In this document: piece after piece, positions 1 through 2,437 of the stretch
Numbering within the stretch: position 1 is the stretch's first letter
How the letters are laid out: every line of letters begins with the position of its first letter
IMG/VR virus record: IMGVR_UViG_2061766007_000442
Strand: one strand, 5' to 3'
DNA length: 2,437 nucleotides
Source: an uncultured virus (IMG/VR IMGVR_UViG_2061766007_000442)
Lineage: Duplodnaviria; Heunggongvirae; Uroviricota; Caudoviricetes
Notes under the pieces: model-generated
The model's input: the letters and a program-made list of their open reading frames with translations, nothing else
Database searches by the model: none
Told to the model about the DNA's origin: nothing
Translations under genes and position numbers: made by a program

Positions 1-1
1 T

Positions 2-274
2 ATATATGTTAATAATCAAATGTATCATGCGGCGATAGGTCTTATCCAAGAAGCTTTACATAATTCAAGACGTGAATATTATTGAATGGAAGATGCCTTA
101 GTATGGACATATCCATTATATGATTTACTTGGTTTTGCTTATTTTTCGTTAGGTGATTATGAAAATGCCGTTGCCGCATCCACTGTTGCTCTAGAATTTG
201 AACCTTCTAATAGACAATTAAGACGTAATCATACTAAATATACTGGTTTATTAAAACAAAAACAGAAACAATAA
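2..274 (+). CDS. 5'-truncated TPR-repeat protein C-terminus containing an in-frame TGA (83-85) read as sense; possibly the TPR tail of a GT2-type glycosyltransferase
   Basis: Frame 2 is open from the window edge: IYVNNQMYHAAIGLIQEALHNSRREYY[TGA]MEDALVWTYPLYDLLGFAYFSLGDYENAVAASTVALEFEPSNRQLRRNHTKYTGLLKQKQKQ-TAA (90 aa visible). 'LGFAYFSLGDYENAVAASTVALEFEPSN' fits the TPR consensus (LG..Y..LG.Y.EA......AL...P.N), and the upstream 'Y.NNQMYHAAIGLIQEAL' looks like the preceding TPR helix pair. There is no Shine-Dalgarno before ATG 86. The glycosyltransferase link is recalled resemblance only, since no catalytic domain lies in the window. Confidence 0.75.
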
Positions 275-282
275 GGGGGTGA
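272..282 (+). promoter_or_regulatory. Shine-Dalgarno for gene 2, overlapping the TAA stop of gene 1
   Basis: TAAGGGGGTGA matches 10 of 11 bases of the extended SD consensus TAAGGAGGTGA and lies 9 nt before GTG 292. Confidence 0.85.
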
Positions 283-291
283 ATATACGTT

Positions 292-902
292 GTGTCTCAA
301 CCCACAGTAAAATTTTACACGGGTCAGGAAATTGATATAGATAATAAAGAAATAGAAAATGGCGCTATTTATTTCCTCCCTTATGATAATGATAGAACAA
401 CCGTGGCATATGATATGAATAATAATAGATATTTTATAGATTATCCTAATCTTGTAACTATTAGTGAGTTAACTACCACTTGAATTCCAAAAGCTGGTGA
501 AATTGTTATTGTTACAGATGCCACTATTGAAGATGGAAAGCCAACTCCATATGTAAAAATTGGAAATGGAATTACAAATGCTTTAGCATTNNNNNNNNNN
601 ACAATGCTATCTCACAAGCAGCAAATGGAACTACTGTTACTTTTAGTGGTTCATATGATAAAGCTACTGGCTTTAATGGTACTGCGGCGACAATTTCTGT
701 AAGTGGTACTTATAAAGAAGTAGATGNNNNNNNNNNACCATATATAGGTGATGATACAGAGATTGCGGAGTTGCGGCAGACCGTGCAAACTCTAAGAAAT
801 GAGTTTGATAATCATAAAAATGATGGTTTAATACATCATAGATTACAAGTACAAGACACAACATATATTATTTCAAACGCCCCACAATTACCAAGTGAAT
901 AA
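292..902 (+). CDS. Putative phage tail-associated protein of about 154 aa (join 292-590 + 737-902) with an Mtd_N/hyaluronate-lyase-N-terminal-like motif and an in-frame TGA at 481-483
   Basis: GTG start with a strong SD. After TGA 481 the frame continues IPKAGEIVIVTDATIEDGKPTPYVKIGNGITNALA to the N-gap. Joining tt(589-590) to a(737) gives TTA-CCA-TAT, i.e. ...KIGNGITNALALPYIGDDTEIAELRQTVQTLRNEFDNHKNDGLIHHRLQVQDTTYIISNAPQLPSE-TAA(900-902). 'P..GE...D...KIG(D/N)G.T....LPY' is the motif pattern of the Mtd_N-like domain of phage tail fibres. It is followed by a short coiled-coil-like segment and an H..D...H motif common in fibre proteins. Confidence 0.8.
601..726 (+). repeat. 126-bp near-duplicate of 1434-1559, bounded by 10-N gaps; probable misplaced scaffold fragment or allelic variant
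   Basis: Ungapped alignment at offset 833 gives 119/126 identity, with mismatches 601 a/g, 602 c/t, 621 g/t, 626 t/c, 632 t/c, 656 t/c and 676 a/g. It is flanked by N591-600 and N727-736. Confidence 0.95.
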
Positions 903-909
903 GGGAGGT
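900..909 (+). promoter_or_regulatory. Shine-Dalgarno for gene 3, overlapping the TAA stop of gene 2
   Basis: TAAGGGAGGT, with core GGAGGT at 904-909, lies 10 nt before ATG 920. Confidence 0.9.
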
Positions 910-919
910 TATAACGTAA

Positions 920-2349
920 ATGCCTAATTATATTGATCATATACAAGTAGGTAGTGATACTTATGATATACGTGATGCCCGTTTTAGCGATCATGATATT
1001 GTAAAACCTTTAAATTTTAGAGGTGTTACTGATACAGCTGGATGGCCTGTAGATGGTGCTACTGTTACAGAAACAGCTACTCCAACATATGCTGAAGGTG
1101 ATGTTATTATTAACACAACAAGTGGCAAAGAATTTGTTGTTGTTAAGGATGATGATACTTTAAAATGGGCTGAATTTGGTGATGCTAGTGACATGGGTGG
1201 CACCGCATTAGATTATGTTACTGCTTCTGGCGCTTTTACACCTGCGGGTAATATAAGTAACTCTAACACAACACTTACTTCTACTGGTAGCTACACTCCT
1301 TCTGGTAGTGTCACAACTGCTACAGCTACATTAACTTCAACTGGTAGCTATACACCTGCGGGTAGCGTTGCTATTTCACAGCCAACTGATGGTACTACTG
1401 TTACTTTTACTGCTTCTTATACACCCGCAGGTAGTAATGCTATCTCACAAGCATCAAACGGAACCACTGTTACTTTTAGTGGTTCATACGATAAAGCTAC
1501 TGGCTTTAGTGGTACTGCGGCGACAATTTCTGTAAGTGGTACTTATAAAGAAGTAGATGGTACTGGTGAATTTACTGGTACACCTGGTACAGTTAGTGTT
1601 TCTGCAGAATATCAACCTGCTGGTACTATTAGTGTTGTTAATCCAACAGCATCAATTAATAAAGTAACAGCGGTTTCTACTGCTTCTATTGGAAAAACAA
1701 CTGCAGTTAGTACTGGTACTATTTATGTTCCTAATGTAACAGCTACTGGTACATTAGTAACTAATGTAACAACTGCCGCGGCTACAGTAGTTTCAGAAGT
1801 TTCATCTGTAAATACTAAATCACAGACAGTTGTCACTGGAGTTCCTACAACTTCTATTAATAAAGTTACAGCTGTTAGTACAGCAAGTAAAAATGTAGTT
1901 TCTAGTGTTTCTACTNNNNNNNNNNNNNNNNNNNNNNNNNNNNNNNNNNNNNNNNNNNNNNNNNNNNNNNNNNNNNNNNNNNNNNNNNNNNNNNNNNNNN
2001 NNNNNNNNNNNNNNNNNNNNNNNNNNNNNNNNNNNNNNNNNNNNNNNNNNNNNNNNNNGACTCAAACAGTTGTTACCGGTGTTACAACTGCCGCACAGAC
2101 TGTAGTTACTGGTGTGACTACTGCGGCTCAAACAGTTGCTACGGGCGGAAATACTGGTACGATTTATGTTCCTAATGTAAGTGCAACTGGTACATTATTA
2201 ACTGGAGCAACTACTGGTAGTGTTAATGAAGTTACTGCGGTAGATACAATTAATACAAAATCTCAAACAGTTGTTACCGGTGTTACAACTGCCGCGCAGA
2301 CTGTGGTTACTGGCGTTACAACTGCTGCACAAACAGTTGTTACTGGTCA
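920..2349 (+). CDS. Thr/Val/Ser/Gly-rich repeat protein, probable phage tail fibre or adhesin; 3' end not resolved
   Basis: Long ORF with a strong SD. A non-repetitive N-terminal region (IDHIQVGSDTYDIRDAR; LNFRGVT...DG...EGDVII...KEFVV...WAEFGD) resembles motifs I recall from gut-phage virion proteins. It is followed by YTPAG-type repeats and then 11-aa beta-rich repeats. The same frame and repeat type continue after the 143-N gap. The ORF-track ending at 2395 depends on crossing the 10-N gap at 2350-2359 and is not trusted. Confidence 0.75.
1235..1630 (+). repeat. Intragenic [F/Y]TPAG-type repeats, 19-23 aa period
   Basis: Anchor aromatic codons lie at 1235 (FTPAG), 1292 (YTPSG), 1349 (YTPAG), 1418 (YTPAG), 1487 (YDKATG), 1544 (YKEVDG) and 1610 (YQPAG), giving spacings of 19, 19, 23, 23, 19 and 22 codons. 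TLTSTGSYTP(S/A)GSV occurs twice and AISQ...GTTVTF..SY occurs twice. Confidence 0.9.
1643..1915 (+). repeat. Degenerate ~11-aa repeats with a 201-bp duplication
   Basis: PTASINKVTAVSTAS (1643) and PTTSINKVTAVSTAS (1844) are 201 bp apart. The block TGTIYVPNV.ATGTL.T...NTKSQTVVTGV at 1712 recurs collinearly, without indels, at 2153. Confidence 0.85.
1916..2058. other. Assembly gap of 143 N inside the repeat region; other gaps of 10 N at 591-600, 727-736 and 2350-2359
   Basis: Directly visible N-runs. Every gap borders sequence belonging to, or copied from, the repeat-rich gene 3. Confidence 0.98.
2063..2349 (+). repeat. 33-bp coding tandem repeat (QTVVTGVTTAA) in two clusters
   Basis: Units start at 2063, 2096, 2129 (degenerate) and at 2264, 2297, 2330 (runs into the gap). 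Positions 2061-2094 and 2262-2295 are identical over 34 bp (offset 201). Differences between full units fall at third codon positions. Confidence 0.95.
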
Positions 2350-2359
2350 NNNNNNNNNN

Positions 2360-2437
2360 GATTTGATAACAATGTTTGTGATGAGCATCTATTAAAAATG
2401 AACGTGTATTTTCTTGTAGTCTCTCTTGGACTAATTT
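2360..2437. other. Unassigned 78-bp fragment after the last gap
   Basis: It lacks the Thr/Val repeat pattern. One + frame and two - frames are open across it (e.g. minus-strand KLVQERLQENTRSFLIDAHHKHCYQI), but it is too short to call. Confidence 0.4.

Follow-up and report, generated by a model that had tools for sequence, protein, structure and literature searches.

TGA as a probable tryptophan codon in a late tail-fibre module of a cattle rumen or gut phage

Two adjacent genes in the virus record IMGVR_UViG_2061766007_000442 (IMG/VR; Caudoviricetes), of which the whole 2,437-nucleotide stretch analysed is called the window, each carry one TGA within an open frame. Do these codons end the genes, are they faults of assembly, or are they translated, and if so as which amino acid? 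A reading made from the sequence alone had placed them at 83-85 and 481-483 (sites 1 and 2), and had proposed that TGA is a sense codon, likely for tryptophan (Trp, W), in a phage structural module. Both positions are confirmed, and the proposal is supported by coding density, homologous codons, and independent assemblies. The window very probably derives from a tailed phage of cattle rumen or gut that reads TGA as Trp (table 4), and covers a piece of its late tail-fibre module. TGA would be used for Trp alongside TGG, with TAA and TAG as the stops. The genes, in order, are a GT2-TPR glycosyltransferase gene of which only the 3' end is present (gene 1), a 154-codon gene of a narrow family (gene 2), and a long repetitive fibre-like gene (gene 3).

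TGA in the window and its relatives

Both in-frame TGAs are real, and they are conserved beyond chance. Each lies in an open frame that goes on as conserved protein. Logan contigs from three bovine-gut DNA runs of three studies (X3, X4, and X5) span both sites, with a likeness to the window of at least 99% or of 95-99%, and differ from it only at positions 46, 58, 169, and 268; because all three keep the same bases at both codons, the TGAs are not assembly errors, which bears on the confirmation of these bases that the sequence-only reading had asked for. At site 2 the codon is TGA in all seven related metagenome loci, which range from 51 to 99% protein identity and have conserved sequence on both sides. 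At least half of the sampled words of the stretch occur in 18 runs, most of which carry the label bovine gut, rumen, or gut metagenome; the source sample of the window may be among them. RNA run X19 has one 151-base contig over 218-368, which indicates presence in an RNA library, not transcription. The part of gene 3 inside the window is without in-frame TGA.

The absence of a Shine-Dalgarno (SD) and start pair after either TGA had been taken as a sign of read-through. This is only partly correct: an ATG (86-88), before which no SD-like run is seen, lies directly 3' of the first TGA, and from it a 62-amino-acid open reading frame (ORF; 86..274) starts under table 11.

Relatives were taken from viral and metagenome collections. 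The window itself had no match in an exact 40-base search of the viral contig collection, and its positions 1-590 had none among cultured phages by blastn. Judged from the frames of these relatives, TGA is a sense codon. The closest relative, a 9293-base metagenome contig (L199), has eight plus-strand ORFs of at least 150 amino acids, all with in-frame TGA (2, 4, 4, 1, 1, 5, 5, and 8; 30 in total), and the seven of these with a visible end all stop at TAA or TAG, with spacing of 0-106 bases. When TGA is read through, the cover by plus-strand stop-to-stop ORFs of at least 100 amino acids rises from 0.605 to 0.902 in L001, from 0.607 to 0.919 in L008, and from 0.467 to 0.801 in L009. Coding density, calculated on a greedy non-overlapping gene set, rises from 0.71 under table 11 to 0.98 in a 23.7-kb record (G002) and from 0.71 to 0.89 in a 130.6-kb record (G001), so the gain expected under the sequence-only reading is present in the relatives; TAG read-through (table 15) gives only 0.75 and 0.77 (G001 and G002). 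ORFs that have TAA and TAG as their sole stops, and hence end at them by construction, adjoin closely in L199 and G002; therefore TGA would not be needed as a stop there.

Residue at the TGA sites

Codon comparison among relatives argues that the residue is Trp and not glycine (Gly, G). At site 1 the aligned codon is TGG in L200, L201, L202, L205, and L119 and TGA in L199, L203/L009, and L120; among the six metagenome loci that align there, four have TGG and two have TGA. Thirty-five of 81 viral loci align at this site and have TGG (9), TGA (2), TAT or TAC (19), ATC (4), or TTT (1), with no GGN; eight of the nine with TGG are standard-code contigs, in which ORF cover is independent of TGA. Bacterial genome loci (40 of 80 aligning) have tyrosine in 39 cases and leucine in one. 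The sequence-only reading had proposed that homologs be used to read the residue, and the outcome is TGG or TGA in close relatives, tyrosine or phenylalanine in distant ones, and never Gly. The corresponding column of 120 homologs from the protein database has W in 116, Y in three, and a gap in one, a count with some circularity, since table 4 was evidently used to call a part of the entries, the window's own protein (P0009) among them. In gene 3, the position of a TGG of the window (1166-1168, in ...LKW AEFGD...) is occupied by TGA in L199 and L001 and by TGG in L008.

The same preference appears across the clade. In a tally limited to recoded records and to partners of at most 85% identity, 97 TGA sites have TGA as the partner at 38, TGG at 30, and Gly at eight, against background partner frequencies of 1.6% for W and 10.4% for G. 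Summed BLOSUM62 scores over the 73 TGA sites with a sense-codon partner are +123.1 for W, +20.6 for Y, -36.9 for F, and -128.4 for G, and the control codons TGG, GGA, TGT, and CGA are decoded correctly by this sum as W, G, C, and R. An all-against-all codon tally that included standard-code contigs was swamped by off-frame ORFs, and the restricted tallies were used instead.

Structural homologs add little on the residue. The GyrA-like ORF aligns to PDB entries only downstream of its TGA. In a lysin that has ricin-type repeats, the alignment to PDB entries covers just the repeat with TGG; by eye, the TGA position corresponds in both remaining repeats to the W or F of a Q-x-W-like motif. A PDB search with gene 2 returned designed propeller proteins only, which are of no help on the residue.

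Several observations weigh against TGA as Trp. The window itself holds only two TGAs. TGG is found at site 2 in none of the seven metagenome orthologs, and the Pfam model Mtd_N, aligned at that site, gives the window 18.9 bits with Gly, 17.8 with X, and 16.7 with Trp, all below the cut-off of 26.3 bits; for L008 it gives 19.2 bits with Gly and 17.7 with Trp, also sub-threshold. The argument that the residue before IPK.GE in this motif is typically aromatic fails because the model scores Gly above Trp. The W at site 2 is invariant in a 10-row alignment, but this is partly circular in that database rows may be code-4 calls. With no TGG ortholog and with Mtd_N favouring Gly, site 2 alone therefore cannot tell W from G; scoring W, G, and X by Pfam at both sites gives differences of 1-2 bits on sub-threshold matches. 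The PDB homologs of NrdD have F, E, and K opposite TGA and are uninformative. In a RecJ-like, early-type ORF of G001 (76862-77980), the sole TGA stands three codons before the terminal TAG and could be a genuine stop.

Reading of UGA and rival explanations

The 130.6-kb relative G001 (CheckV completeness estimate, 90%) has the same three-gene order as the window at about 55% identity and encodes portal, terminase-like, and virion proteins. Its replication module includes DNA polymerase, a DnaB-like helicase, primase, two topoisomerase II subunits, ligase, Sak4, a RecJ-like exonuclease, and a split NrdD. In the late block TGA is counted 135 times and TGG 89 times; the counts in the replication block are 50 for TGA, 12 of them at ORF edges, and 102 for TGG. 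TGA does not occur in the DNA polymerase, helicase, primase, topoisomerase large subunit, ligase, or Sak4 genes, which have 2-10 TGG each, and in the GyrA-like ORF the sole TGA precedes the gyrase A-aligning region. In this study the concentration of TGA in late genes together with TGA-free core replication genes was seen in G001 only. The nrdD gene of G001 lies in two pieces (65972-69777; 5975-9777 in L033) with an HNH endonuclease gene between them, which suggests an insertion of intron or intein type.

From G001 and the literature, we infer a cell-walled, standard-code Bacillota host and core replication genes that would be kept free of TGA. The cell wall and the phylum are suggested by the cell-wall-binding endolysins of the relatives and the Bacillota homologs of the glycosyltransferase. 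On a published timing hypothesis, late genes with TGA would be translatable only once a UGA-reading tRNA is present, so that virion and lysis proteins would be delayed. Two points tell against this picture: the 50 TGAs of the G001 replication block, and the fact that the window has no early gene, so the pattern of late versus early genes is borrowed from a relative of about 55% identity. The L008 endolysin (15777-16883), with ELLD and choline-binding repeats, has no in-frame TGA, though the published hypothesis lays weight on recoded lysis genes; five are present in the lysin gene of G001 (62199-63182).

The decoder of UGA does not lie in the window. No tRNA was found there, and none of the 11 tRNA genes that Rfam and ARAGORN find in G001 has the anticodon UCA; standard tRNA scans of all the relatives, with G002, G005, and the metagenome loci among them, also gave no UCA anticodon, and neither release factor 1 (RF1) nor tryptophanyl-tRNA synthetase (TrpRS) was found in G001-G004. 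These negatives count against recoding by the phage itself. The search for tRNA-Trp(UCA), RF1, or TrpRS that the sequence-only reading had proposed thus came up empty by standard scans of the relatives and left one intron-split candidate in G001.

With its intron option, ARAGORN finds two split tRNA genes in the G001 tRNA cluster, at 106255-106940 and 115149-115436 (6255-6940 and 15149-15436 in L035). The inserts are group-I-like, of 595 and 192 bases respectively, and both genes are missed by plain ARAGORN and Rfam scans; the 595-base insert appears, by eye only, to hold an open frame. Over the whole length of the Rfam model Intron_gpI, the insert of 115149-115436 scores 41.9 bits (E 1.6e-9, in a 381-base stretch). 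In group I introns the 5' splice site follows a U and the 3' site follows a G. Splicing of 115149-115436 after U34 and after the nearest G would give a 96-nt cloverleaf with a 7-nt anticodon loop, the anticodon UCA, and a 6-bp variable arm, and both ARAGORN and RNAfold, run without constraints (minimum -32.2 kcal/mol), arrive at this fold. The anticodon depends on the splice site chosen. Three features speak against this gene: the Intron_gpI score is below the Rfam gathering score of 50; the boundaries set by ARAGORN itself give the anticodon TTA, with an intron end that is not G; and a long variable arm is a feature of tRNAs of the serine, leucine, and tyrosine type, not of tRNA-Trp. The gene is a candidate UGA decoder, in a relative rather than in the window phage.

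A tentative and rather unlikely extension is that the decoder of UGA is a phage tRNA overlooked by standard tools, with a group I intron in the anticodon loop, UCA formed only after splicing, and a long variable arm. If true, the code switch and late-gene translation would be gated by tRNA splicing, and the charging of such a tRNA with Trp would be in question. The sole Trp codon of gene 2, which is TGA in all seven loci (about six lineages), could also reflect selection for a stop-codon checkpoint; the chance of such 7/7 conservation is about 0.05, a rough estimate from the share of TGA.

Other tRNA genes of these phages are also unusual. Three adjacent genes of 86-92 nt at 109104-109522 of G001 (L015/L035) have long variable arms and the anticodons UGU, UAU, and CAA; a long variable arm is unusual for threonine and isoleucine anticodons. 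G004, a TGA-recoded 126-kb phage, has in a tRNA cluster a 73-nt tRNA-like gene (L014, 1025-1097, minus strand) to which ARAGORN assigns an 8-nt anticodon loop with 'gaca'. Running ARAGORN at the 85% threshold with introns gave 94 predictions, mostly noise, which were not used.

If the phage simply followed a host that itself reads TGA as Trp, no phage-specific switch would be needed, and the lack of a suppressor tRNA, RF1, or TrpRS in standard scans of the relatives would be expected. Moreover, of the 27 INPHARED phages that use table 4, 22 have a Mycoplasma or Spiroplasma host (Cook et al., PMC11210395). This explanation is nevertheless improbable: endolysins of the relatives have cell-wall or choline-binding repeats, with no evident use against a wall-less mollicute, the absence of TGA from the core replication genes of G001 is unexpected if TGA is an ordinary host codon, and G001 holds the candidate split tRNA(UCA). 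In addition, the known table-4 bacteria comprise the Mycoplasmatales, the Entomoplasmatales, and some insect endosymbionts, and not cell-walled rumen Bacillota.

Translation of TGA as Gly (table 25), with a host among the Absconditabacteria or Gracilibacteria, is very improbable. Phages with code 25 exist (Borges preprint, bioRxiv 10.1101/2021.08.26.457843), and the Mtd_N scores at site 2 in both the window and L008 lean towards Gly, but there is no GGN at site 1 in 35 viral, 40 bacterial, and six metagenome loci, Gly partners at 8/97 clade sites do not exceed the background and TGG partners at 30/97 far exceed theirs, and the substitution sums are opposite in sign for G and W (-128 and +123).

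It is scarcely credible that the TGAs are real stops left by nonsense mutation, pseudogene decay, gene splitting, or assembly error. The window is a poor scaffold, with four runs of N and two misplaced pieces, and under table 11 an ATG does directly follow the first TGA; this has to be set against the same TGA bases in three independent runs, the conservation of site 2, flanked on each side by conserved protein, in 7/7 loci with identities as low as 51%, and the eight of eight long plus-strand ORFs of L199 that real stops would break. Selenocysteine, hinted at only by the label 'SeC' that ARAGORN gives the hypothetical spliced tRNA(UCA), can practically be dismissed, with dozens of TGAs per genome at Trp-type positions, cysteine outside the six best-fitting residues (the lowest of which scores -75.9), and a candidate tRNA whose 7-bp acceptor stem and 4-bp D stem are unlike the shape of tRNA-Sec.

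Published phages, scaffold faults, and gene families

Recoding of TGA to Trp in late genes of gut phages is already published (bioRxiv 10.1101/2021.08.26.457843; PMC11210395). In the Agate phages, as described in the preprint, TGA accumulates in structural and lysis genes and the replication genes use the standard code; the lineage has genomes of about 127 kb, predicted Firmicutes hosts, and cattle among its sources, and a suppressor tRNA was detected in 35% of code-4 genomes (bioRxiv 10.1101/2021.08.26.457843). The phages studied here are similar in TGA as Trp, and G001 (130.6 kb) also in the late-gene pattern and in size; cattle as a source, a predicted Firmicutes host, and the frequent lack of a detected suppressor tRNA are further points in common. 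The Agate clade is defined by a terminase tree in that account, and the agreement here is in genome size and recoding pattern only. Unlike the Agate genomes, the window is only 2.4 kb, and what links it to a 130-kb genome is synteny of three genes with identities of about 55%.

Table-4 phages are described as rare by Cook et al. 2024 (PMC11210395), with 46 viral operational taxonomic units (vOTUs) in UHGV, a Sup-TCA in 11/73, and a median coding capacity of UHGV table-4 phages that rises from 78.0% to 90.4% when TGA is read through. The gain in the present relatives is comparable in kind (71% to 89-98%). The INPHARED table-4 phages of that paper mostly follow the Mycoplasma or Spiroplasma code, whereas the lysins here point to a cell-walled host. 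The code-25 phages of Absconditabacteria (Borges preprint; PMC10746230) also have in-frame TGA; unlike in those phages, the residue here is Trp, as argued from codon interchange and the substitution spectrum.

The window phage appears to add one lineage to the TGA-recoded phages of Bacillota and to leave the general picture unchanged. Because table 11 cuts these genes into pieces, table 4 has to be used for the contig and its relatives. In samples from cattle gut the phage seems to be common, and its module of glycosyltransferase and fibre-like genes would be mis-called otherwise. For the class as a whole, the question is what reads UGA where no suppressor tRNA is visible, and the candidate split tRNA of G001 touches on it.

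The G+C content of the window is 36.5%, and its plus strand holds three genes of a tail-fibre module, with N runs at 591-600, 727-736, 1916-2058, and 2350-2359. Its features are as follows.

2..274, plus strand: gene 1, 3' end (last 90 codons) of a GT2-plus-TPR glycosyltransferase gene, from TPR Pfam matches and phrog_13126; stop TAA 272-274
83..85, plus strand: in-frame TGA, site 1, codon 28 of the open frame 2..274, read as Trp
273..294, plus strand: SD-like AAGGGGGT and GTG start of gene 2, by direct sequence reading
292..590, plus strand: first part of gene 2 (codons 1-99 and 2 further bases); encodes a small protein whose phage family is narrow and whose Mtd_N-like motif is weak
481..483, plus strand: in-frame TGA, site 2, codon 64 of gene 2, its sole Trp position
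591..736, no strand: scaffolding artefact (N10, a 126-base variant copy of the gene 3 segment 1435-1560, N10)
737..902, plus strand: gene 2, second part; stop TAA 900-902
903..922, plus strand: SD-like GGGAGG and ATG start of gene 3, by direct sequence reading
920..2349, plus strand: gene 3, Thr/Ser/Gly-rich, repetitive, fibre-like; N 1916-2058 inside, end outside the window
1166..1168, plus strand: TGG, Trp 83 of gene 3; homologous codon TGA in L199 and L001, TGG in L008
2360..2437, minus strand: misjoined fragment, the gene of which sits upstream of the glycosyltransferase gene in relatives

The visible gene ends are TAA followed by an SD, as had been noted: TAA 272-274 is followed by GGGGG (275-279) and GTG at 292, and TAA 900-902 by GGGAGG (903-908) and ATG at 920. 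In-frame TGG is indeed used three times, at 104-106, 1043-1045, and 1166-1168.

Comparison with relatives indicates that the window is a mis-scaffolded patchwork in which 601-726 and 2361-2437 are misplaced. L199 has 97.1% DNA identity to window 1-590 and 87.7% to 737-1876, and the two matches adjoin in it at 2979 and 2980 (the counterparts of 590 and 737), so that 591-736 is an insertion artefact; the contig of run X5 likewise goes, past about 582, directly into the sequence from 737 onwards. Alignment of 601-726 with 1435-1560 shows near-copies of 126 bases. Once joined, the two parts of gene 2 (292-590 and 737-902) come to 465 bases, which is exactly the length of its L199 counterpart; of the 155 translated positions, counting the stop, 152 agree between the two. 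Window 2361-2437 is the reverse of L199 426-350 (94.8%), and its translation resembles the L008 ORF 4805-5323. What the sequence-only reading (2..590) missed is the N-joined scaffold, in which gene 2 goes on past 590 and resumes at 737.

By its family matches, gene 1 encodes the C-terminal part of a TPR-bearing GT2 glycosyltransferase. The fragment matches phrog_13126, a beta-1,4-glycosyltransferase, at E 2.7e-4, and the full-length ortholog in L008 matches it at E 5.6e-69 over 3-363 of 366 amino acids and has Glycos_transf_2 (Pfam, 25.8 bits; cut-off 23.3) and many TPR models; the ortholog in L199 has 371 amino acids. The family has more than 1000 database homologs and is found in many Bacillota genomes and viral contigs, the bacterial homologs being almost all from Bacillota (80 kept loci).

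Gene 2 has 154 codons and only seven database homologs. It shares the weak motif W/x-P-x-x-G-E ... K-I-G-x-G with the N-terminal domain of the Bordetella phage BPP-1 protein Mtd (PF18454). Unlike Mtd of BPP-1, its scores with this model (16.7 with W and 18.9 with G in the window, up to 19.2 in L008) do not reach 26.3 bits, and membership of Mtd_N was not assigned. The AlphaFold2 model of gene 2 from the 10-row alignment has a mean predicted local distance difference test (pLDDT) score of 46.4 and is unusable. Gene 3 looks like a repetitive fibre protein; it matched no Pfam or PHROG family, is 83% identical to its counterpart in L001, and has orthologs of 645 amino acids in L199 and L001.

In L008 the module extends further, to genes for large unannotated proteins, the endolysin, a RuvC-like resolvase, and an HNH nuclease. 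G001 has a full-length ROOL RNA (Rfam RF03087, 347.6 bits) at 112384-112985 (12384-12985 in L035), within its tRNA cluster (about 106-116 kb) and about 500 bases upstream of an endolysin gene.

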